The notes under the pieces: model-generated
Told to the model about the DNA's origin: nothing
Databases searched by the model: none
The model's input: only the letters and a program-made list of their open reading frames with translations
Translations under genes and position numbers: made by a program
In this document: piece by piece, positions 6,480 through 24,368 of the stretch
How the letters are laid out: the number at the start of each line of letters is the position of its first letter
How positions within the stretch are numbered: position 1 is the first letter of the stretch
Assembly: GCA_963730935.1 (NCBI GenBank)
Contig: CAVSTP010000004.1
Span: forward strand, 1,472,001 to 1,536,000
Reading direction: 5' to 3'
From: an uncultured Nitrospiraceae bacterium
GTDB lineage: Bacteria > Nitrospirota > Nitrospiria > Nitrospirales > Nitrospiraceae
DNA: 64,000 nucleotides

Positions 6480-6907
6480 CTGCTGCGGTCGGCATTCTCA
6501 CCCGCCCAACCCTGGGCAATCCTTTTCACCCACCGACCCACCGATTGCTTTGCAATCGTTTACCCGGGACGCGCCTTTTCCCAGGCGGCGATGGCGAGAC
6601 GCACTGTTCGAGGTTCGTTCAGACGCAGTCTGGAACGAACCAAGTTGCGGAGCCAAGCAGCGATAGCACCATGCGGTTTCACTCATCGCTGAGCAATGGC
6701 GACCCTCCGCCTGTATCCCTTCTGGTGTGCGCGTTGGGCGAGCAAAGGAAGCTGCCTAGCCTACCCATTCACTATTTTGCGGAGCCAAGCAGTGGGAGCG
6801 CACTGCGTTTTAGCCCTCGCCTGAGCAGGAATGGCCTATCCACCCTCTACCACCAAATTGCGGAGCCAAGCGGCGGTCTGCCATGCAGCTTCACCCATCG
6901 CTGAAGC
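6480..6907. repeat. Composite mosaic repeat locus
   Basis: 6495-6667 is a near-identical inverse of about 23965-24139; three GCGGAGCCAAGC modules; 6721-6770 matches 56391-56439. Confidence 0.9.
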
Positions 6908-10094: not shown

Positions 10095-10107
10095 GTTTGG
10101 AGTTGGA

Positions 10108-10432
10108 AGTGGATGGCCGCCTGTTGCTCCGCGATGGTAAAACCGCACAGCCTATCGCTCCTTGGCTCCGCAAACTTGGTCCGTCCTAGACTACGTCCGG
10201 ACGGACCTTCGAACACTGCGTCTCGCCATCGCCTGCGGCGACCGCAGCCATAGGCCGTGCACCCATCGCAAGTCGCATGAGGCCACCATCCACCTCCATG
10301 AGCGGACGAGTAAGAACCGGGCGCCCAGATCGACGCCATCCGAAAACATGCAGGCCATGCATCACAATCACAAATCTTCAAGAGACGAGCATCCGCCTTA
10401 GGAGGGAAAAACGAGCAAGCTCGGAAGGAGCA
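10108..10432. repeat. Mosaic repeat locus
   Basis: CTTGGCTCCGCAAACTTGGTCCGT-hairpin-CTTCGAACACTGCGTCTCGCCATCGCC and ACGAGCAAGCTCGGAAGG modules. Confidence 0.85.
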
Positions 10433-12364: not shown

Positions 12365-12610
12365 TTACCTGGATTGGTCTTGCTTGGATAAAGGATTGCG
12401 TACCGAGGCAGGGTACTGTCCACCATAATCGCACCGCGTTTCATACGCCGTGTCTTTCTTTATTTCATACGTCGCGCACGGCCGCCCATTTTCGTCTTGA
12501 GAATACCCGATCGCTTGCCGCTGTTTTTCGAAGAACTCACACCCGGACAACAAGGCGAGAACGCCGACGTATAAGAGCAGCCAACGGGGGCCATAAGATG
12601 TTAGTCCCAC
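12365..12610 (-). CDS. Small lipoprotein
   Basis: LLLYVGVLALLSGC lipobox; two further Cys. Confidence 0.6.
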   Translation of the reverse strand: MGLTSYGPRWLLLYVGVLALLSGCEFFEKQRQAIGYSQDENGRPCATYEIKKDTAYETRCDYGGQYPASVRNPLSKQDQSR

Positions 12611-12631
12611 GATCTAATCAAGCTATGATGA

Positions 12632-13108
12632 CTATGCCTGTAAGTCTTTATCCCGCTTTAGCGGGGCTAATCCGACCGCATTGACAAAGTCCTTATACCA
12701 TTCGCTGGAGTATACATAGGTGTGAATTAAACCTTCGAATAAATAGCTAACCTCAACATACGCAATCATCCCAATGTATTGCGTGAAGGCTTCGATTTTA
12801 GCGGTATGAGTACGCCGCACTTGAGACGAGGCCTGAAAGACCTCATCGTAAGTGAGCGTCGATCGATGTAAATACATTGTCTTTGTGTCAAAGGACTTAG
12901 CAATTGATAGGAAGCTTTCCCAACGCGGGTCTTCGTCACGATCCCAGGCAGCTTTTGGAAAGCCTTTGTCCTCAATAGTGCCGTAAAAAATCGTAAAATG
13001 ATGCGTCTTGCAGTACGACTCTATCTCCTCAAAAACATCATAAGTCGTGTCCCCTCGCTTGCGTTTCGTCTCCGTCGTCAACCCGCCATGGTTTGATTCT
13101 GGGTTCAT
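12632..13108 (-). CDS. Hypothetical protein (AT-richer than surroundings)
   Basis: GGAGG RBS; 158-aa globular ORF; preceded by a WYL-type promoter. Confidence 0.7.
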   Translation of the reverse strand: MNPESNHGGLTTETKRKRGDTTYDVFEEIESYCKTHHFTIFYGTIEDKGFPKAAWDRDEDPRWESFLSIAKSFDTKTMYLHRSTLTYDEVFQASSQVRRTHTAKIEAFTQYIGMIAYVEVSYLFEGLIHTYVYSSEWYKDFVNAVGLAPLKRDKDLQA

Positions 13109-13141
13109 ATACCCTCCACAACCCTAACATTTGCCGTCGGC

Positions 13142-13175
13142 ATCGTAGCAGGAGAGTGTGACAAATAAGGTCACA
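13142..13175 (-). promoter_or_regulatory. Putative WYL operator-promoter, copy 3
   Basis: Minus strand TGTGACCTTATTTGTCAC-ACTCTCCTGC-TACGAT. Confidence 0.75.
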
Positions 13176-13523
13176 TCCTTAAAGTATTTGTGGATCGCGC
13201 AGAAAAATCCAATATTGTAGTGTTTCGCACGGAAAGCAGAATATCCGCATTTGCCTACTGGCAATCTATCTTCCCATCCCTACCCTCACAAGCTTAGGAG
13301 CGATCTTCAAATCGTCCAAACCTCAGGCCGAAGGTTCCTGACACCTCTTCCCACCCACCTTTCCCACCTTCAGACCCAGAACGAGTGCCTGTGTGACCGA
13401 ATGTGAATGGGCTCAAGCGAAATTGAAAGCCCATAGTTGTCACCGGCACCGATGGGATGGGTATTGGCGTCAGATTCTTTCGGCCGCTCAATCAGTTCTA
13501 AAGGGTTGTCCAGGCGATCTTAA

Positions 13524-13548
13524 GCGTCAAGAAAAGACTCCCGACCCC
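13524..13548. repeat. REP-like repeat identical to 600-624
   Basis: Exact 25-bp match. Confidence 0.75.
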
Positions 13549-13600
13549 GATGATGCCCACTTATCGTAGCAGTTACAGGCAAGTCAACTTTGCTGGTGCC

Positions 13601-15148
13601 TCAGCAATTGTCATCAAGTCCAACATGTCGGAGGATATCCTCCTTCGCAGCTTGGTAACTAGTATGGCCGTCAAGGAGGTGACATACATTGACATTCTCA
13701 ACGCCTTGGACATGAATGGGGTGAAGTCCAGCTATGTCCTTGAATTCTAGTTCTGCAGTCCGGTACATGTAACCTAGGACCCAGTCCTTGGGGCAATACG
13801 CGTTGACGAGGCGACCTGCCACTATATTTCGGACTTGTTCCCACCGAGCCGCATCAGCCGAAAAGGCGCCTCCCATTAGAAGCACATGGTCAATTAGTCC
13901 TTTGGAGGGATCTCCGCTTTTTGCCAGATGCTCGAGTGCGTGAAATATCAGTCTAGCACCGAGTGAGAAGCCAATTAATGTGATCGGTCGCTTACCATGC
14001 TGCGCTGTTGCTAGGTGTTCAGCCAAAATTTTTGCTGCCTTCTCGGAACGATCACGTGCAACGGACCATGGACTGTCAATAATATTCGCCAAGCTCAAAA
14101 TTGCGGTAGGCCACGCGAACCTTCGTGCGGCTATGCGACAAGCATGACGAGCAAAGACATGAACTCCCATCAGGCCAGCACTCTGAAAGCCAAACATGCA
14201 CAGTGCTTTCCCGAGATCGAAAAGGTGCTGCGACTCCCAAATTAAGGCGTGGTGCTCACCATGTCCTGTAACCGTAGGAAGGTGACTCCAGGTTTCGACG
14301 GGATTGCTGCGTTCTGAGAAAAATCCAGACACAGCCAGAAAACAGTGCATCCCTTGACCATTGAGGTGCGCGTAACGGTACTCATCAACTTTGCCTACGC
14401 GGGAGGCTACCTTCTTGCCTACTAAGCCTCCGCCAGTGAGTCCAAGTGCCGCCGCTACTGTGGCAGTCCCTCCGGCCATCCCAGCTCCCCCGGCGGCTAC
14501 TGCGCCGCCGCCAAGTGTTGCTAAGCCCGCGCTCGTCGCTGCGGCGCCACTCAGTCCCAAGAAAAAGGTGCCGATTGCTCCACCAATTGCAGGCGCCGCG
14601 ATTGGTGTTAGTAGTACGGCACCGACTGCAGCGGCCGTGGCACCAGCGACAATTTTCCATCGTCGCTCCCGTTTTTGTTCATCGGATTCATTCTGCGTAT
14701 AAGTGGCAGGGGTTGTGCGTAGCTCTCGCGCCAGCTGGTCTTCAAGAGCTGTGATTTGGTTCCAAGGAATGCCGAACATCATCGCTACATACCGGAAGCC
14801 TTCCCGTTCGCGCGCATCATACTTGCCATCTGCCACGGTGGCGGTCAGCAGGTAAGAGAGAACTGTTGACCGGACCTTCTTACTTCTGACGGCCTTCCCG
14901 AACTTCGCTGGATCGGGTTGTTCTGCAACGAGTTGTAAGAGTTTGCCCTGGCTTGCCTTCGATAGCTTGAGATGTTCATACATGCGCCTGAGAAGACTCT
15001 GATCCATGAGCCCTGCCCTAGCGGACAGAGTGGTGAGTAGTGCCGCAACGTTGAAGCGGTCCTTGTCGGAAACATGTTGAAAGAGCAGTTTGTCTTTAGT
15101 GGCGTCTTCTTTTTTCACCTTGAAGCGAAGTCGGCGATCCGATTGCAT
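13601..15148 (-). CDS. TerB-like + DUF726/TMCO4-family alpha/beta hydrolase (putative lipase)
   Basis: ADGKYDARERE TerB-like motif; Gly/Ala-rich hydrophobic hairpin; LIGFSLGAR (GxSxG), LMGG, RLVNAYCPKDWVL, GHTSY; start uncertain (frame open to 15304). Confidence 0.8.
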   Translation of the reverse strand: MQSDRRLRFKVKKEDATKDKLLFQHVSDKDRFNVAALLTTLSARAGLMDQSLLRRMYEHLKLSKASQGKLLQLVAEQPDPAKFGKAVRSKKVRSTVLSYLLTATVADGKYDAREREGFRYVAMMFGIPWNQITALEDQLARELRTTPATYTQNESDEQKRERRWKIVAGATAAAVGAVLLTPIAAPAIGGAIGTFFLGLSGAAATSAGLATLGGGAVAAGGAGMAGGTATVAAALGLTGGGLVGKKVASRVGKVDEYRYAHLNGQGMHCFLAVSGFFSERSNPVETWSHLPTVTGHGEHHALIWESQHLFDLGKALCMFGFQSAGLMGVHVFARHACRIAARRFAWPTAILSLANIIDSPWSVARDRSEKAAKILAEHLATAQHGKRPITLIGFSLGARLIFHALEHLAKSGDPSKGLIDHVLLMGGAFSADAARWEQVRNIVAGRLVNAYCPKDWVLGYMYRTAELEFKDIAGLHPIHVQGVENVNVCHLLDGHTSYQAAKEDILRHVGLDDNC

Positions 15149-15452
15149 CGTTCCGGCTTTCCCTTTTAGATTTCTACCGGTAGCATTCTTCTTCGCCTTT
15201 GCCCGCGGTTCTCGTTGACGTCTTTGACTTCGCGAAGAACCTTTTTGGATCGGCCTGCGAGATTTAGACCGTCCAGATGTATGTCTCGCCAACGACTTGC
15301 GCAATTAGGTCTTCCGCCTTCTCATAACAACGTCCGCCTGTCTGAAACTGTCTGGAATCTTTTATAATGGAAGCGCTAGCTGGAACGCCATGAGCCAAAG
15401 TGGCCGCAGCTTCACGAGCTTTTCGGTCGTCTCTAAATGATTATTCTGGAAC

Positions 15453-15806
15453 TTATCCCGTCGCTCTTTTCACCATCGGAGAGCACGCTAACCATATGTC
15501 TGCAATTGCTCGAACAATGGATTTTTCTCCCACGGTTGGACACGTGTCATATGGAAACGAGCAGCCTATCTGAAATTCCAAATTTGACCGTCGATGAGTG
15601 AGAGCCTCGTACGCCGCCTTGACCCACTCCGCTTGTCGCTTTGTTGGGCCGCGATATCGGCTTGAAGCAGGGAGAGCCGTTCGAGCATCAAACACTAACT
15701 GGCAATCCGGCACACCGTGCGAACGTCGACTCGAAAAGTGTCGCTGAAGCACGATAATTTGTGGAGCGTATCCTTTTACTCTTTTCAGTGCTCGAATGTT
15801 TCGCAT
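15453..15806 (-). pseudogene. Probable C-terminal remnant of a hypothetical protein
   Basis: Protein-like 117-aa ORF with an in-frame stop 4 codons upstream of the ATG; looks 5'-truncated. Confidence 0.4.
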
Positions 15807-15943
15807 GATTTCGTTTTACCTCTGTACAATCTGCCGGCTTAGGCGACTTGCACCGTTCCGATATGGCGATGCCCAGTCAGCGTTGGCTCAAACGCATACC
15901 GATTTTCGCTGGACAAAGCAATCTTTCAGAAGCTCTTGAGACG

Positions 15944-15977
15944 AGTGTACTCTTCGCGTGTGACAGAACAGGTCACA
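15944..15977 (-). promoter_or_regulatory. Putative WYL operator-promoter, copy 2
   Basis: Minus strand TGTGACCTGTTCTGTCAC-ACGCGAAGAG-TACACT. Confidence 0.75.
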
Positions 15978-16145
15978 GGCTGGAAAGGGAAAGTGTGTGC
16001 GGGGTTTCCGGTTAGTTAGAGAAGCCGCACGAAGAGGAAACTTAATTATCTGTCACATCCAGGGTCACGAGTCGAGCTGAGTCAGAGCGACGGCGGCGCA
16101 GGCTCCGGAGGGTATTCACAGCCGGCTATATAAGCTCGCTCTCCC

Positions 16146-17213
16146 CTACCCCGACTGTTGAATGGCGGAGAGGAGCCATTTGCCCTGCTGGTGCCGCATG
16201 AAGGTCCAGAGTTCCGTCGTGTCGGTGGGGCTCTGGTCGCTCCCCTCGATGAGATACCCCGGCTGTCCCGGCTGCTTGCTGGTGGACACCGTGTAGTCCC
16301 GCGCCGTCCATTGGAGTTTGGCCGTGGCGTAGTCCGTCCCCTCTTCCGTCCAAGATTCCTCGAGATCGGCTCTCGTGAGGACCACGTCTTCGACGTGATT
16401 TTCGACTTCCTGACTCGCCTGCTCGGCGAGGGCGGTGCTGAAGTAGGCCAGCATTTCAGGCGTGACGAACCGCCGCAAGGCGGCGAGGTCCTGCTTGCTC
16501 CAGGCGGTTTGAATGTCGATCAAGAGTTGCTGGAAGGCCGCCTTATCCCCCGCCGTGACCTCGCTCTCGACGGTCGCGGTCCGGAAAGGCGCGGCCGAAG
16601 AAGATGCAAAAGAAGATCCAATGGAAGAGGCGTCCAACAGGGACCGGGGCGCGTCCGTCCCCCGGTTCATCCCGGCGAACGCGGGCACGGGCTTGCGCCG
16701 GCGGGAAAAGTAATAGAGCACCCCGCCCGCCACGACCATAAGAAGGAGCATATCCACCGTGTTGAATCCGCTCGCATGGCTCGCCGCGCCGGCCTCCCCG
16801 TCCTCGCTGGTCTTGGCGGTACTGTCGGTGGCGCCGAAGAGCATATGGCCGATCCACGAGCCGGCGAGGCCGGCTGCGATGCCGGTCAATATGGGATGCC
16901 GCTGGATAAGAGACGGATTACTCTGGGCCGTCGGGGCCGGACTGGCTGTTGTTGGTGGCGGCGTGGCCGCCGGCGTCTTGGGCGCGGTCGATTGCTCGAT
17001 CGGCTTCCCGGAGTTTTGATCGTAGGTGCGTGACCCGCGGCTGCCCATGCTGCCCGATCCGCCGCCGCGGGAGCCGCCCGAAAACCCGCCTCCGCCCCCT
17101 CGCGCCTTGGCAAAGGAGACGGTCGGCACGCCGATGAGCGCACAGACGATGCAGGAGGCGATCAGTTTCTTGGTAATCACGAGCGATGTCCTTTCGGTTG
17201 CGGTCGTCGACAC
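16146..17213 (-). CDS. Tim44-like domain membrane protein
   Basis: Signal peptide; GGS-MGSRGSRTY; TM segments; IQTAWSKQDLAALRRFVTPEM...ELWTFMR...WLLSAIQQ. Confidence 0.9.
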   Translation of the reverse strand: MSTTATERTSLVITKKLIASCIVCALIGVPTVSFAKARGGGGGFSGGSRGGGSGSMGSRGSRTYDQNSGKPIEQSTAPKTPAATPPPTTASPAPTAQSNPSLIQRHPILTGIAAGLAGSWIGHMLFGATDSTAKTSEDGEAGAASHASGFNTVDMLLLMVVAGGVLYYFSRRRKPVPAFAGMNRGTDAPRSLLDASSIGSSFASSSAAPFRTATVESEVTAGDKAAFQQLLIDIQTAWSKQDLAALRRFVTPEMLAYFSTALAEQASQEVENHVEDVVLTRADLEESWTEEGTDYATAKLQWTARDYTVSTSKQPGQPGYLIEGSDQSPTDTTELWTFMRHQQGKWLLSAIQQSG

Positions 17214-17555
17214 GGCAACTGTCCTCCATCATCCTAACAGGTATGGGCGAGAGAAACCGAAGATTCGAAGGCCGTTCGACTCGCGCCGGCCGGGTCACTT
17301 CCAGGTCGAATTCATCCGATGCTTCCCACGCCGGCGGCCAACCAGCGCAATCGCAGGCAGGCCCTGATCGCCGCCCTCTTGGTGGCCTGGGCTGCCTGCT
17401 TGTTGGGCTAGACCTTTGCATCCTTCTAGACCCTGCTCGCGCTCAGTCCCTACAGTTATTGGCCGGTGCCCCGCCGGGAAGCGCTATGAAGACTGTTGCC
17501 GGTCGAAGTCCGGCGCCACGGCCGGGCGCGGAGCTTAAGCGGCGCTTCGATTGCG

Positions 17556-17762
17556 TCAGTAGGGCCGCCGGTTGTATTTGCGGTCGAACTCCTGCTGATC
17601 CAGCTGCTTTCTCATATGCTCAACGTCCAACTGCTGCTGCCGCTCGCGGAAGTAGTCGAACTTCTGCTGTTGCGGCGACCGATTCAGAGAGTCCTTGGCG
17701 ATCGCGGTGACGGCGCTATCGAAGCAGATTCCGAGCAAGATACCGATTAAAAACCCTCGCAT
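17556..17762 (-). CDS. Small exported protein
   Basis: AGGAGG RBS; MRGFLIGILLGICF signal; Gln-rich helix. Confidence 0.7.
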   Translation of the reverse strand: MRGFLIGILLGICFDSAVTAIAKDSLNRSPQQQKFDYFRERQQQLDVEHMRKQLDQQEFDRKYNRRPY

Positions 17763-17975
17763 GGTGGCCTCCTGCCTGGGCATGTTCTCATGGCGATCAT
17801 CGGCCCTGAATGTTCCACCCTTTGCCGTATGGATTGTTCGGCTTGCGTCACTTGTGGTGGAGCGACGGCTGGAGGGGTGGCGCTTTGTGGAGTATTGGCC
17901 ACCTCTGCCGGCGTGTCCCCACTACCACTCGCACAACCTGAGACTAGCAATAGCAGCCCATAGCATCATTCGCAT
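17747..17975 (-). pseudogene. Possible small lipoprotein with frameshifted signal peptide
   Basis: MRMMLW in one frame continues as GLLLLVSGCASG in another. Confidence 0.3.
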
Positions 17976-18010
17976 ACATCACCCCACTCCTATGATTTAA
18001 CATTGGCATC

Positions 18011-18445
18011 TTACCGACCCCCTTCAATCCTCCATCCCTTCCCATACGGATTATTCGGGAATCGGGTTTGAACGGACTCCCGGCGCCGAATTGGTTATTG
18101 AGCGAGTCCGGCGAAAACGGCGATCCATAGCGGCCAAACTGGTTCGACGTCGAGTCCGCGATCGTAGGGATTGGCGCTCAGCTTGCCGCGGTAGTTGCCC
18201 TGCTGGTCGTACAGCCTCGGCGCGTCCGTCGCAAACGGGTTGGTCGCCGATGTATTGCTGAACGGACTGCCGTATGGACTGAAGGAGTTGTTGATGCCGT
18301 TGGGCGCGAAGGGGCTCCCCTTCCCGAACGGATTGCTGCTGGATTCGAAATCGAACGGATTGGCGCTGAGGTTGCCGAGGTCTTCGGCTTCGGCGTGGAC
18401 CGGAGCCATCAACAGAGCTGTCAGTAGGATCGATGCAGCGTTCAT
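18011..18445 (-). CDS. Exported SNP(F/Y)G-repeat protein, two frameshifts (about 18160 and 18056)
   Basis: LSANPFD.ESSSNPFG.GSPF repeats; frame switching gives DSTSNQFGRYGSPFSPDSLNNQFG and PNNPYGKGWRIEGGR*; ATGA overlap with the vWA stop. Confidence 0.75.
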
Positions 18446-19122
18446 GGTCGTCCCCCTTTCCCCTCCGCCTCGTTGCTCCCACTGTCCAATAGTGGCTTTT
18501 GAAGCGGGCGGAACGCTGTCTCTGAATGCCTCATCCCCCTCCGATAGCTCGCATTCATGTTGGATAGTTCATTGAACGTTTGGCCTATGTCGCTCTTCGA
18601 GAACGCCACTCGGCATTCCGACGCGATGCCTAAATCCTCGCCCGCCACCCAAACGTCGTGATCCGCTCCGAGATAGACGAACCGCCAGCCCTCCTTCTCG
18701 CATTCCTTGATAAGCGCAAAGATCTGTTTCCTGGTGTAGTCCTTCGAGGCATTCTCCAGACCGTCGGTCAGGATCACGCAGAGCTTCTTGAAGCCCTCCG
18801 GGGACTCCTGCCTGGCGGCGGTCAGCGTTTGGCCGATTGCGTCGTAGAGCGGCGTCGTGTCCTGCGGACGGTAGGTTTCGACGTCTAGCTCGGGGACCGT
18901 GGAGACTGGCACGCCGCGATAATGGACTTCTGTCCTGTGCGAGTTGAACAGGGTGAGCGTGAACCAGGTCGCAGCTGGCTCGTCCTTGAGCGACTTCACG
19001 TACTGATTGAAGCCCGTGATCGCCGCGCGTTTGCACGATTGCATTGAGCCGCTTTCATCGAGAATGAGCGTGACGTAGAGCGGTTGAGGTGCATTCTCTG
19101 AGATTCCGTCGTGTGCTTTCAT
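18442..19122 (-). CDS. von Willebrand factor A (vWA) domain protein
   Basis: MIDAS ILDESGSM, TPLYDAIG, ILTDGLENASKDY, FVYLGAD. Confidence 0.9.
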   Translation of the reverse strand: MKAHDGISENAPQPLYVTLILDESGSMQSCKRAAITGFNQYVKSLKDEPAATWFTLTLFNSHRTEVHYRGVPVSTVPELDVETYRPQDTTPLYDAIGQTLTAARQESPEGFKKLCVILTDGLENASKDYTRKQIFALIKECEKEGWRFVYLGADHDVWVAGEDLGIASECRVAFSKSDIGQTFNELSNMNASYRRGMRHSETAFRPLQKPLLDSGSNEAEGKGGRP

Positions 19123-19155
19123 GCTCGCCTCCTGGTTGAGTGTTTGAATGGAGGC

Positions 19156-19189
19156 ATTTTATAGAAGCGGTGTGACACGTGAGGTCACG
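19156..19189 (-). promoter_or_regulatory. Putative WYL operator-promoter, copy 1
   Basis: Minus strand CGTGACCTCACGTGTCAC-ACCGCTTCTA-TAAAAT, immediately downstream of the WYL gene. Confidence 0.78.
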
Positions 19190-19203
19190 CTCAGAGGAAA
19201 AAA

Positions 19204-20276
19204 TTACGAGAGCTGAGCCGAAAGAGAGGGAGGAGCAGGAATGTCAGGAAAGACGCTTGGTTGCGGGGGATCCGTTCGGAAGCCGGCTCCGGCAGCTGCA
19301 TGAAAAATGCGGCGGGATTCGGTCTCCACGGCGGCCCTCAGACTAGTCAGGCCGAACGACACCGAACGCCGCTGCCGAAGCTTAAGACCCAGCCGACGAG
19401 CTCGCGGCTGTCGGCAACGGTCAGGGTCATAAGCATCCCGCCATTCTTCAAGGACGTGAGCTTCTGAGTGGGATGCCAGAGGCGGTCTTTCGCCCAGGCC
19501 GCGGTGGCCTTGTCGAACCGCAGGGCCACGTCGATTGGCCTCCCGCGCATGACGGTCAACGAGTCCCGCACGAACGCCTCCAGGTCGAAGCCAAGCGGCA
19601 TCTGGTAGGGGTGGTCGGTGAGTGTCACCGCGCGCATGCGCTCGACGGCAAACATGCGGGGTTCCTTTCGCTGGTGGCAATAACCGACCAGATAGAGCCC
19701 GCCCGAGGCATACCAGAGCCGGTAGGGATCGACTTCTCGGCGCGTCGTGCGTAGGCGCGACGCGGAATAGTAGCGCATCTGCACCGTTCGCTTCTTCGCG
19801 ATGGCCTGCGTGAGGCGGTCGATGGTTTCCCGATGCAGACGATAGGTCTTGTGCGGGCCTAAGCCAACGGCAAAGACGTTCTGCATCTGTTGCACGTAAT
19901 CGAGGGAATGCGGCGGCAGGAGCCGTGAAGCTTTGGCCATCGCCGATTCCAGTGCCGCCTGGATTTCGGTGCCGGCCAGCGGCTTGAGCAGCGATCGGCT
20001 GATCACGAGCGCCATCAACTCGGTCGGCGAAAACCCCAGCGCAGGCGCCTGACGGACGCCATCCATGAGACGCCAACGTACGCGGCCGTCGATGCGTTCG
20101 TTGATTAGCGGAAAGCCTGCCGATTCGAGCGCTTCCAAATCCCGCCGCACCGTCCGACCGTGCCGGGGATAATCGGCAGGCAACCGGCTGACGATTTCAT
20201 CGAGCGTGACGCCTCGCGGCGACTCCAGCAGTCGAAGCAAATGCCATTGGCGGGTAACCTGATCGTTCCGAGGCAT
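19204..20276 (-). CDS. HTH-WYL-WCX transcriptional regulator (YafY/PafBC-like); C-terminus frameshifted (about 19361 and 19345)
   Basis: RTVRRDLEALESAGFP winged HTH; RREVDPYRL, LYLVGYC, RMFAVERM; WHPTQ, WVLSFGSGV; removing two bases gives VRVVRPDSLRAAV. Confidence 0.92.
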
Positions 20277-21299: not shown

Positions 21300-21700
21300 C
21301 CGGCCCGTCGATGGCGAGCACCCAAATGGTCCCTCCAAGCTCGCTCGTTTCACTCCTTTAGTGTTCCAGTCATGCTCATCGATGCTATCAATGCATCTCG
21401 CGTTTGTTTATACCTCTGACAAAGAGTTGTCAGTTGCGGGTGGCGTCGACCTGGGCGCCTATCTCACCCGCCCACCCAACCGCGCCAAGACGCGGTTTTC
21501 ACCAAGCGGCCGCAGCGTTCCCGAGAATCTCGCTCTAGCTCGTCATTCTTTTCAGGGGTGGCCCGCTTAGCCTCAAACGTGCGCGCGTGAAGGAGCACCG
21601 CCTAGCTGAACATACGATTGGTCTGGTGTGCCGCCTTCCGCGAGCACAAGGAGGCTAACGGGCCGCCCTGCCTCTTTACCCTACACCGGGCGGGGTGCCA
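21300..21700. repeat. Divergent mosaic repeat locus
   Basis: CCCTCCAAGCTCGCTCGTTT, CTCACCCGCCC...CGCGCCAAGACGCG, ATACGATTGGTCTGGTGTG modules. Confidence 0.75.
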
Positions 21701-21735
21701 AGCCGGACGGGCTGGTTGGCGACAGGACCCGCAAA

Positions 21736-23843
21736 TTAGCTTTTCGCCTGAAGTGCAGGTCCATCGATCGAGAGCGTGATATGGAACGCCGTCCCCTCCC
21801 CTTCCTTGCTTTCCACCGCAATCGTCCCTCCATGCGCATCCACGACATCTTTCACAATCTTCGTGCCGAGTCCCGTGCCCCCGACCTTTCGGCTGATCGC
21901 CTTGTACGAGAAGAGACTGTCGCGGACTTCCGGTGACATGCCCTTTCCCGTGTCAATCACCGACAGCACCACGTGCTTGCCCGATTCGTCCAGGCGGCCC
22001 CGAACCGTGACCGATCCACCCGCCGGAACCTCCGGGATCGCATTGTTGACCAGGTTATAGATGCATTAAACAGCCGGCTTTCATCAGCCCGGATGACCGG
22101 CAGCGTGTCGAGTCCCTCTTCGCGGAGCGCCACCTTACCTTCATCGGCCAGGATGCGAAGGGTCTGGTACACGTTCGACACGACGTCGGCCAGGCGGCAG
22201 GGCGCAAACTGCGGAGGCCGCGTCAGGCCTTTGACCGAATCGGCGATCTCTTTGACCCGGTCGTTGATGCGCCGCGAGTTTTGCTTGATCATTTCGGTTA
22301 GTTCATGGGTTCTCTCGCGCGCGGGCTTGGCGGCTGTCACTATTGACTCAGGCAATTTTGAAAAACCTTCGCTCAGTTCCTCTTCGAGCAACTCGGCGCC
22401 GCCCGTAATGGGCATGAGCAAATTCTTGAGGTCGTGCCCGATGTCTCCCAAGACCCGCGCCACTTCGCCGAGCCGTTGCTCCTCAACAAGGCGGGCTTCG
22501 GTTTGCCGGAGCTCTTCTTCCGTCCGCTTGCGATCGACGAACAGGCCGACTTTGATCCCGATATCCGCGACCATATCGAGCACATCCTGATCCGGCTCGC
22601 GGCTCTGCCGGCTGAAAAATTCCATGACGCCATACAGCTGCTCGCCTTTGCACACGGGAAAGGCAATCCCTCCCCGGAGGCCGACTGTCGTGGCAATCTC
22701 CGTGCGGCGGAACGTCGGATCGGCACAGACATCCGGGATCCAGATCGGCTTGCCGGTGGCCCAGACGCGGCCGATGAGTCCTTCCCCCCGTTGAAAGGTC
22801 CGGTCCCGGCTGTCGTCGACGAACCCGCCGGCTTCCACGTGCGGCGCATGCCACAGGGCGACAAAGCGGAGGGCTTGTATCTGTTCATCCCTACTCCAGA
22901 ACATACCCAGCTCCCACTCGAGGCTCTCCCCGAGGGCACGCAAGACTGCCTGAGCCGCATCTTTCAGGGTCGCCGACTCGGCCAGGGCCCTGGTCACCGC
23001 GTATTCCGAGGCCAGACGCCGTCCCGACCGCTTGATCACGGCCAGCGCTGCCCGTGTGTCGCCCACCATCCGCACGTAACCACGGCTCACATAGATCAAC
23101 GCGAGCACGTACGCGATGAGTCGAACGAGATGCCACACCCACCAGGCACTGTCCCAGGGTGCGGAAAACAGGAACATCACTTCGGCCAATCCGAAGAGCA
23201 ATCCCAGCGTCGCGAGCAGCTGATGTTCCGCCCTGCCGGTCCGGCCGGCCTCGAGCCAAAACCCCGCCGCACCGGCAAGGAACAAGACGGCTGCGAATCC
23301 ATTGACCGCGAGCGCAACGGGCGCAAATTGCTCCTGCGTTGTGAATCGTGGCAGTTGATAGGGAGCGACGACGACGAACAATCCGAAGGCCATCGTCCCG
23401 CATGTGACCAGGTAAGGAATGAGGTCCCTGGTCCGCCTCCCGAGCATCCCCGGCGGATGCCACACGAACGAGAAGGCCACGCCGCCCAGTAGACTCGCCG
23501 CGCTGCGCAAGAGCACGAAGCCCTGGTCCGAAGAGGAGACGGCGTGGAACCCTTCCAGGATCCCCATGCCCAGCAGCCCGCTCGCCAGCCCCTGGAGCCT
23601 CTCATCTTCCCACTCCGCTTTCCGTGCGAGTAACACGAGGCCCATCAGGACTGCCGCCAACCCGCCCAGGGCTTCCACCGTCGAATGAAGAGGTACGTGA
23701 ATCGAGATCTGGTGCGGCCAGAGGAAGTGAACGAGCAGACCGGAGAGCAGCGCGGCGGCGACCATACCGATCGGAATGAGAGCTCGAGCCATAGCACGCC
23801 CCGCGACAGGATAGGCGAGGACATTACGATGGGGGGGAACCAA
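21736..23843 (-). CDS. Membrane sensor histidine kinase (multi-TM - GAF - HisKA - HATPase), frameshifted at about 22062
   Basis: About 7 TM helices; GEGLIGRVWATGKP GAF; GHDLKN H-box; NLVNNA, DTGKGM, GTGLG in the second frame. Confidence 0.88.
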
Positions 23844-23919
23844 GGGTCAAGCGGAGGGGCTAGCGAAGACGGTGTCTCCCTGCTCCGAGCTTCGGCTCGA
23901 CCACACTACGCTAAGGTGA

Positions 23920-24368
23920 AGGCGAATGATCGCCTCTGCTCAGCGATGGGTGAGACCGCAGGGCGCTATCACTGCTTGGCTCCGCAACTTGTTCCGTCCT
24001 TGACTTCGTCAGAACGGAACTTCGAACAGTGCGTCTCGCCATCGCCACCTGGGAAAAGGGCGCGTCCCGGGTAAACGATTGCAAAGCAATCGGTGGGTCG
24101 GTGGGTGAAAAGGATTGCCCAGGGTTGGGCGGGTGAGAATGGCGATCGCAGCGACAGGCCCTGCACCCATCGCAAGTCGCCGGAGTCGACCAATTCCCCT
24201 TCTCGGGAAGGGAATGAGCAAGCTTGGAACGACCATTCGAGCCTGCAGCAAGTCGCGGCTAAGACACCGTCTCCGCCATCGTTTGAGAAGAATAAGGCAG
24301 TCCTCATAAGCCGAGGCAAGGGACTATCCACCTCGTGAGCAGAGGAAACAAGCGAGCTTGGAAGGATT
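23920..24368. repeat. Mosaic repeat locus
   Basis: Inverse copy of 6495-6667 plus two GCAAGCTTGGAA/GCGAGCTTGGAAGG modules. Confidence 0.9.

Follow-up and report, generated by a model that had tools for sequence, protein, structure and literature searches.

A shared promoter box beside a DriD-like WYL regulator: a candidate activator site in Nitrospiraceae and other phyla

Introduction

Which protein reads a promoter element that recurs three times behind one WYL-domain regulator gene, and which genes does it switch on? The question is raised by a 64-kb stretch of an uncultured Nitrospiraceae genome (contig CAVSTP010000004.1, positions 1,472,001 to 1,536,000; hereafter the window, meaning this whole stretch). 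A sequence-only reading of this DNA had proposed that the regulator controls three downstream cassettes as one damage- or phage-induced membrane response. Our analysis suggests that the WYL protein encoded next to the box is likely the one that binds it. We give a probability of roughly 0.8 to that protein being a DriD-like homodimeric activator, triggered by single-stranded DNA (ssDNA), that reads the box.

A box at fixed spacing to the -10 element

On its minus strand, the window has three perfect matches to GTGACCT-N4-TGTCACAC, at 19170-19188, 15958-15976 and 13156-13174 (boxes 1 to 3). Chance predicts 0.10 copies of this 19-mer in the window, and none of 100 shuffles gave three or more. 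The three were described as the only intact copies in the window; a whole-genome pattern scan found them to be the only ones among 4,045,564 bases. Each box is an inverted repeat, GTGAC-N7-GTCAC, and a TANNNT element begins exactly 10 nucleotides (nt) past TGTCAC in all three, as had been noticed: TAAAAT at 19161-19156, TACACT at 15949-15944 and TACGAT at 13147-13142. When the distance from GTGAC-N7-GTCAC to TANNNT was varied from 4 to 19 nt across the genome, three matches fell at 10 nt, one at 5 nt and none elsewhere. The full unit reads GTGACC-N5-TGTCAC-N10-TANNNT.

With its -10 element, box 1 (19156-19188) precedes the start of a vWA gene, and orthologous loci have a box in the same place. 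Box 3 (13142-13174) precedes the start of an orphan gene of 158 amino acids (aa). The distance from -10 to ATG is 33 nt in both, an equality claimed earlier and read directly from the sequence. Box 2 (15944-15976) has no nearby start codon and is followed by a leader and a truncated gene. A matrix built from 51 sites of other organisms placed the window's three boxes at the top of the genome ranking with 32-35 bits, box 3 first; the next site scored 20.9. A search for a -35 hexamer at the three boxes returned at most three of six matches to TTGACA, and a sigma-70 promoter scan detected none of the three box promoters. Terminator predictions at the locus were at chance level.

A fourth, one-mismatch copy without a -10 element had also been reported, at 16051-16069 on the minus strand, 93 nt upstream of box 2. 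It indeed has no -10 and differs at one position from the short form GTGACC-N5-TGTCAC. However, it has three mismatches to the 19-mer, was not recovered in a 19-mer search allowing up to two, and scores 3.4 bits. This degenerate copy is like the auxiliary sites that lie 101-104 nt upstream of 14 of the 43 full sites in relatives.

The box travels with the WYL gene

The regulator (19347-20276, minus strand; 309 aa as assembled) has a wHTH-WYL-WCX layout (wHTH, winged helix-turn-helix). Pfam reports WYL and WCX above cut-off, with the HTH models below it. It is the only WYL gene of its type in the genome, and all three genome sites lie less than 6 kb from it. Orthologs are 325-342 aa long, and close ones occur in named Nitrospira records (for example, L101).

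The scan of genome and relatives that had been suggested for the unit found the three sites in this genome and the unit accompanying the WYL ortholog in relatives. Among 61 genomes, 12 have an ortholog that is 63% or more identical, and the unit was present in 11 of these, the exception ending 205 nt past the gene. It also occurred in 4 of 8 genomes with distant or fragment matches and in 7 of 41 without a match, with the full consensus in 2 of those 7. The 61 genomes together held 35 sites versus 5 for a backwards control. Eighty metagenome loci, selected by the regulator protein alone, gave the same picture: TGAC-N7-GTCA appeared 108 times versus 1-15 for other spacers, and the 10-nt spacing to TANNNT 51 times versus 0-3 for others. 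Downstream sequence of 1 kb or more was available at 57 loci (23 shorter ones were omitted), and 43 of these have a same-strand site. C5, T6 and T11 were conserved although absent from the search pattern, and the best TTGACA match at all 41 exact sites was at most three of six. The consensus is TGAC-N7-GTCA, not the CGAC-N7-GTCG of DriD.

What stands behind the box is variable. Sixty first genes behind sites include 22 that cluster with vWA, 16 for exported repeat proteins, 8 for Cas6/Cas3 (one member of each of these two clusters confirmed by Pfam) and 3 for a 68-aa protein. Further 3′, locus L041 has an Ssp system and locus L035 a type I restriction subunit. On these comparisons, the Nitrospira regulon is best read as local, with 1-4 sites per genome. 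Its core would be vWA plus an exported repeat protein, and CRISPR-Cas, Ssp and restriction enzymes would arrive behind the box or the core. The counts at ortholog loci support the proposal of a WYL-linked local gene set with activator-type promoters, in which a box is reused while the cargo behind it changes. They do not support a single membrane response: cargo in relatives comprises vWA, exported repeats, Cas6/Cas3/Cas7, nuclease and ATPase genes, with recA in planctomycetes, and the locus is better read as a defence or stress island. Also unsupported is the membership of the Tim44 gene, which has no box of its own and lies downstream in 1 of 57 ortholog loci. The DUF726 gene and the 158-aa orphan were found there in 0 of 57.

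A regulator related to DriD

The alignment of an intact ortholog with Caulobacter DriD spans the proteins from end to end, at the level of distant sequence similarity (E 9e-21). A profile search of structural relatives placed DriD first (E 1e-33), PafBC next, and BrxR/CapW at 2e-7 or weaker with similarity confined to the WYL domain. R41, T42, R44 and R45 of the regulator align with DriD R37, T38, E40 and R41. In DriD, R37 and R41 recognise the two guanines of each half-site, and the outer C is recognised by E40 (PMC10853764). All 77 orthologs keep R41, T42 and R45 and have Arg (R44) at the E40 position; the outer base here is T where the DriD site has C. In the ssDNA pocket, five of nine DriD contacts (Y168, S172, R178, Y192 and R204) are identical here, as Y169, S173, R180, Y195 and R207. 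By eye, W206 aligns with Phe, Y240 probably with Met, and R288 is probably kept.

The promoter geometry is also familiar. DriD promoter oligonucleotides, as we read PMC13004042, contain TGTCGC-N10-CAATCT and TGGCGC-N10-CAAGGT, and that paper places the DriD site across the -35 position, at a set distance from the -10. The PafBC motif is tGTCgg-N10-tA-N3-T (PMC8635444). Both spacings equal that of this unit, which therefore has the geometry of two proven activators.

Reach across phyla

In GTDB, the strict pattern gave at least 120 matches, of which 80, with named rows and 3-kb flanks, were examined. Acidobacteriota dominate the matches listed, and others fall in Nitrospirota, NC10/Rokubacteria, Desulfobacterota, Chloroflexota, Bdellovibrionota and planctomycetes. 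A WYL homolog lies within 3 kb in 24 of the 80 motif loci listed (13 divergent), versus none in 443 kb of control loci. Five whole genomes examined have 1-4 sites each. Among the matches listed, 26 of 115 first genes behind the box have a Pfam family, with Cas6, two type I-G Cas7, ARPP-1, REase-ARP, SSB, Pup, DUF222 and WYL genes annotated. Of the groups there without annotation, the two largest comprise 38 acidobacterial CxxC proteins and 10 small proteins.

Several loci show peculiarities of their own. The unannotated acidobacterial cargo (L075-L191; for example, L090, L095 and L098) consists of CxxC and 60-80-aa proteins, many with QLALY- or QLDF-like starts, which we take to recall a sliding-clamp-binding motif. 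In a Frankiales genome (L114), the box directly precedes a Pup gene, an echo of the link between PafBC and the proteasome. In Chloroflexota (L119, L120, L145, L158, L170) and one Bdellovibrionales genome (L568), the box lies 5′ of the WYL gene itself, an arrangement that suggests positive autoregulation.

A relaxed pattern occurs in 27 of 151 Planctomycetia genomes, with 47 sites versus 9 in the control and an AACG-rich centre. These sites precede recA, Cas3, an alkyltransferase-like gene, DUF5131, csrA and WYL-only proteins, as well as genes without a Pfam match that we take to be addB-like. The stand-alone WYL-domain proteins behind the planctomycete box (L574, L593) could possibly act as feedback sinks for the ligand. 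One genome (G096) has 19 one-mismatch sites, many without a -10, which may be due to chance. With a matrix derived from phage sites only, 6 of the 30 planctomycete loci scanned yielded a recA promoter, at 9-26 bits, versus -10 or less for other upstream regions and -2 or less for controls; the Nitrospira matrix separates these promoters less well. The six genomes with a recA box are exactly those of the 30 with a WYL ortholog, and a seventh ortholog genome has no recA locus in the set. In four genomes, the ortholog lies ∼12 kb from the recA/addB-like site (L645, L647-L651; L580, L619-L622). LexA is present in all five planctomycete genomes checked. One of these, G119, has LexA and neither the ortholog nor a recA box.

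Box-bearing phages

Viral contigs carry the unit as well. TGACCNAACGTGTCAC-N10-GATAAT occurs in 87 stretches, often as arrays before small open reading frames (ORFs), and with N11 spacing in none. The N11 comparison was used because the N12 control (at least 123 matches) is confounded by GATAATAT, which supplies a second TANNNT. In large marine-type phages (L284, L298, L309, L319 and L344, the last being G062:C1:5899-7643), arrays of GTGACCTAACGTGTCAC-N10-[TG]ATAAT likewise precede small ORFs. A search for WYL or WYL_2 in five viral records, one of them 98% complete, found neither.

A 162-kb, 98%-complete phage encodes replication and rII genes, two tandem DUF1501 genes (L528:14110-16610) and a sigma-region-4 protein. 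One phage DUF1501 protein is 60-62% identical to those of three planctomycete genomes and 39% identical to that of one verrucomicrobium, and it has no match in one acidobacterium. Judged from this one phage, box-bearing phages probably have a planctomycete host. Cultured phage relatives of G062 reach only ∼25-33% identity, and no host is indicated for it.

Tentatively, these strands may belong together: one WYL lineage and one box would span Nitrospirota, Acidobacteriota, Methylomirabilota, Planctomycetota and others. In some they would form a portable defence switch; one planctomycete group would use them for a recA/addB regulon independent of LexA, and large lytic-type phages of those planctomycetes, themselves without WYL, would have built early promoters on the host box. 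As a whole this is somewhat less probable than its opposite.

How the box may be read

We infer WYL binding to the box, activation and the ssDNA signal from the conserved site, its spacing and the residues shared with DriD. Damage or infection would make single-stranded DNA, which the WYL homodimer would bind. The loaded protein would then occupy the palindrome over the -35 region, 10 nt from the -10, and recruit housekeeping RNA polymerase to promoters without a -35 element. Local defence-type genes behind the box would be switched on as a result.

Several observations weigh against this account. All 77 orthologs have Ala where DriD has its ssDNA residue R207, and together with the apparent Met at Y240 this means that the ligand may differ. 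In a tree of WYL proteins, lineage subclades form and deep nodes stay open, and box-linked WYL proteins are not resolved as one clade. The regulator as assembled lacks the end of its WCX domain. Because the compared genomes are kin, the counts above are not independent of one another. Among the GTDB motif loci listed, 56 of 80 have no WYL within 3 kb, and ∼70 chance matches are estimated in the collection. Finally, the strain's own recA has no box (matrix score -17), and a search of the 99.9% complete genome for a LexA DNA-binding domain found none; a boxless recA even where no LexA was found implies that this is not a general damage regulon here. A genome-wide damage regulon in this strain was rejected on the same recA score and the lack of a fourth strong site.

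What else might connect box and regulator? An activator might respond to RNA, a cyclic nucleotide or another ligand instead of damage-derived ssDNA. The two pocket substitutions just described and the Nitrospira cargo, which is not made up of repair genes, would fit such a signal, and a WYL protein sensing cyclic di-GMP (c-di-GMP) has reportedly been published. We nonetheless hold this unlikely: Y169, S173, R180, Y195 and R207 match DriD ssDNA contacts, recA and the alkyltransferase-like gene stand behind the box in planctomycetes, and DdaA shares the Arg-to-Ala change and still drives a damage response (PMC12392091). Less likely still is repression in the style of BrxR/CapW with release on sensing ssDNA. 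Although the defence-type cargo includes cas operons and the site covers the -35 region, there is no -35 element to block, the 10-nt spacing is strict, BrxR/CapW match the WYL domain alone and weakly, and the geometry is that of proven activators.

It seems very improbable that the box is read by some other protein, be it an alternative sigma, LexA or a CRP-like one, and that the WYL gene is a mere neighbour. The many motif loci without a nearby WYL speak for it, as do the box-bearing phages without WYL, and with its sigma-region-4 protein a phage factor could be the box reader. Yet no LexA was found in the source genome (G000), G119 keeps LexA while having neither ortholog nor recA box, and the box tracks the ortholog in two phyla. 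The spacer also differs from that of a CRP site, which is N6. A DriD-like, ssDNA-triggered activator is the reading that we prefer.

The cassettes of the window

All genes of the three cassettes lie on the minus strand. Cassette 1 begins with a stand-alone vWA protein (18442-19122, 226 aa; Pfam VWA), the conserved first cargo gene, found downstream in 20 of 57 ortholog loci. It matches phrog_7371, a phage family without assigned function, and a search for a solved-structure relative found none. Next is an exported SNPFG/NPF-repeat protein (18020-18445; 143 aa in relatives, two indels here), for which Pfam and phage-family (phrog) searches returned no family; it or a sister repeat family is downstream in 34 of 57 loci. 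A 67-aa ORF (17747-17950), whose 3′ part overlaps the leftover end of a second SNPFG gene, is followed by the 68-aa protein with a hydrophobic N-terminus (17556-17762). The latter is boxless here, has its own box in some relatives and occurs in 11 of 57 loci. The Tim44-like gene (16146-17213; Pfam Tim44) lies upstream of WYL in L031 and is probably a neighbour outside the regulon.

The leader behind box 2 (15800-15933; no Rfam match) is ∼70% identical to DNA 3′ of boxes in L033 and L038, where it stands before a different large gene; by this comparison it appears to be transplanted. It leads into a 117-aa remnant (15453-15806; no Pfam family), the C-terminal part of a ∼420-aa hypothetical family, and then into a TerB-like plus DUF726 (TMCO4-like) alpha/beta-hydrolase (13601-15238; start uncertain, 15148 or up to ∼15238). 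PADLOC PDC-M09A matches of the DUF726 protein were discounted, as they cover a glycine-rich stretch only. Behind box 3 lie the 158-aa orphan (12632-13108), a small conserved family with 12 relatives besides itself (structure prediction at pLDDT 38; no atlas match), and a small putative lipoprotein (12365-12610) with a lipobox-like LSGC read from the sequence and no protein family found. Cassettes 2 and 3 have 46-56% GC versus 57% for the genome and are strain-specific. On the best reading, boxes 2 and 3 here serve recently acquired, partly decayed low-GC cargo. Box 3 scores highest and has the 33-nt leader that vWA sites typically show, so it looks like a redeployed promoter. Four short intergenic repeats (∼6495-6700, 10100-10290, 21430-21740 and 23900-24140) match many sites in related genomes and are probably miniature repeat elements.

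Some of these genes are broken. Two single-base insertions near 19361 and 19346 remove the WCX end of the regulator, and the SNPFG gene has a +1 indel at 18159 and a -1 indel at 18059. Between 9052 and 22064, eight single-base indels cluster in five genes; the split ones presumably include phosphatase-like, transporter-like and histidine-kinase-like genes. Orthologs compared between 27 and 56 kb of the window had no indels. Genome-wide poor assembly was rejected, as elsewhere only 1 of 83 orthologs is split and the indels cluster locally. A 347-nt contig with nine differences lacks both extra regulator bases, and small-share sequencing runs show related strains only. A local assembly error is the more probable cause, recent decay the less probable one.

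Implications

The box offers a sequence tag for genes likely induced by damage or phage in little-studied phyla. As such a tag, it singles out candidates for unknown defence proteins: the small vWA, both families of exported repeats and the CxxC proteins of Acidobacteriota. Some phages may exploit the box. If so, a host activator that sounds an ssDNA alarm would launch phage early transcription, a defence-arming stress sensor would become a phage transcription factor, and phage arrays could also drain the activator from defence genes. A literature search for phage early promoters using a host WYL activator found no paper.

Comparison with known WYL systems

Literature searches for the motif strings or the theme found no paper with this motif (subscription papers lie outside their coverage), so the comparison is with relatives. 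The sequence-only reading had drawn a parallel with PafBC that holds for the promoter: the TGTC..-N10-TA-N3-T geometry without a -35 is the same (PMC8635444). However, PafBC is a heterodimer of two tandem genes that uses one half-site and controls ∼150 genes, whereas here there are one gene, a full palindrome and three sites. The full palindrome, the single WYL gene and DriD as best structural relative favour DriD instead.

Other WYL systems share single traits. The palindrome of DdaA (Moraxellaceae), CGWCA-N5-TGWCG, is related; DdaA also brings repair genes together with CRISPR-Cas and restriction systems, and carries Arg-to-Ala in its WYL pocket (PMC12392091). Its site, however, lies ∼50 bp upstream of the start with other outer bases, whereas the box here ends 10 nt before the -10. 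The strings Nitrospira, Planctomyc- and Acidobacteri- did not occur in its supplement (PMC12392091). SiwR of M. smegmatis is a homodimeric WYL activator of adjacent genes that uses an imperfect palindrome, 19 bp long, placed between -35 and -10 (PMC10693628); it differs in its dinB-family cargo. BrxR and CapW are likewise WYL regulators adjoining defence systems, but they are repressors with weak similarity to the WYL domain only, and the box promoters here have no -35.

DriD, to which the protein is closest, shares a palindrome over the -35 position, a fixed -10 distance and the lack of a -35. It differs in its site, CGAC-N7-GTCG with outer C where T stands here, in E40 (here Arg) and in R207 (here Ala). 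The phyla are others here too, and in Nitrospira the box stands before vWA, exported repeats and defence genes. The regulator is predicted to work like DriD but departs from the defining site and residues of DriD, as well as from the defining traits of PafBC and DdaA, and the box, by this comparison, would represent a new DNA-specificity variant among WYL activators. Such a class would come with a residue-base rule, Glu40-C in DriD and Arg-T here.

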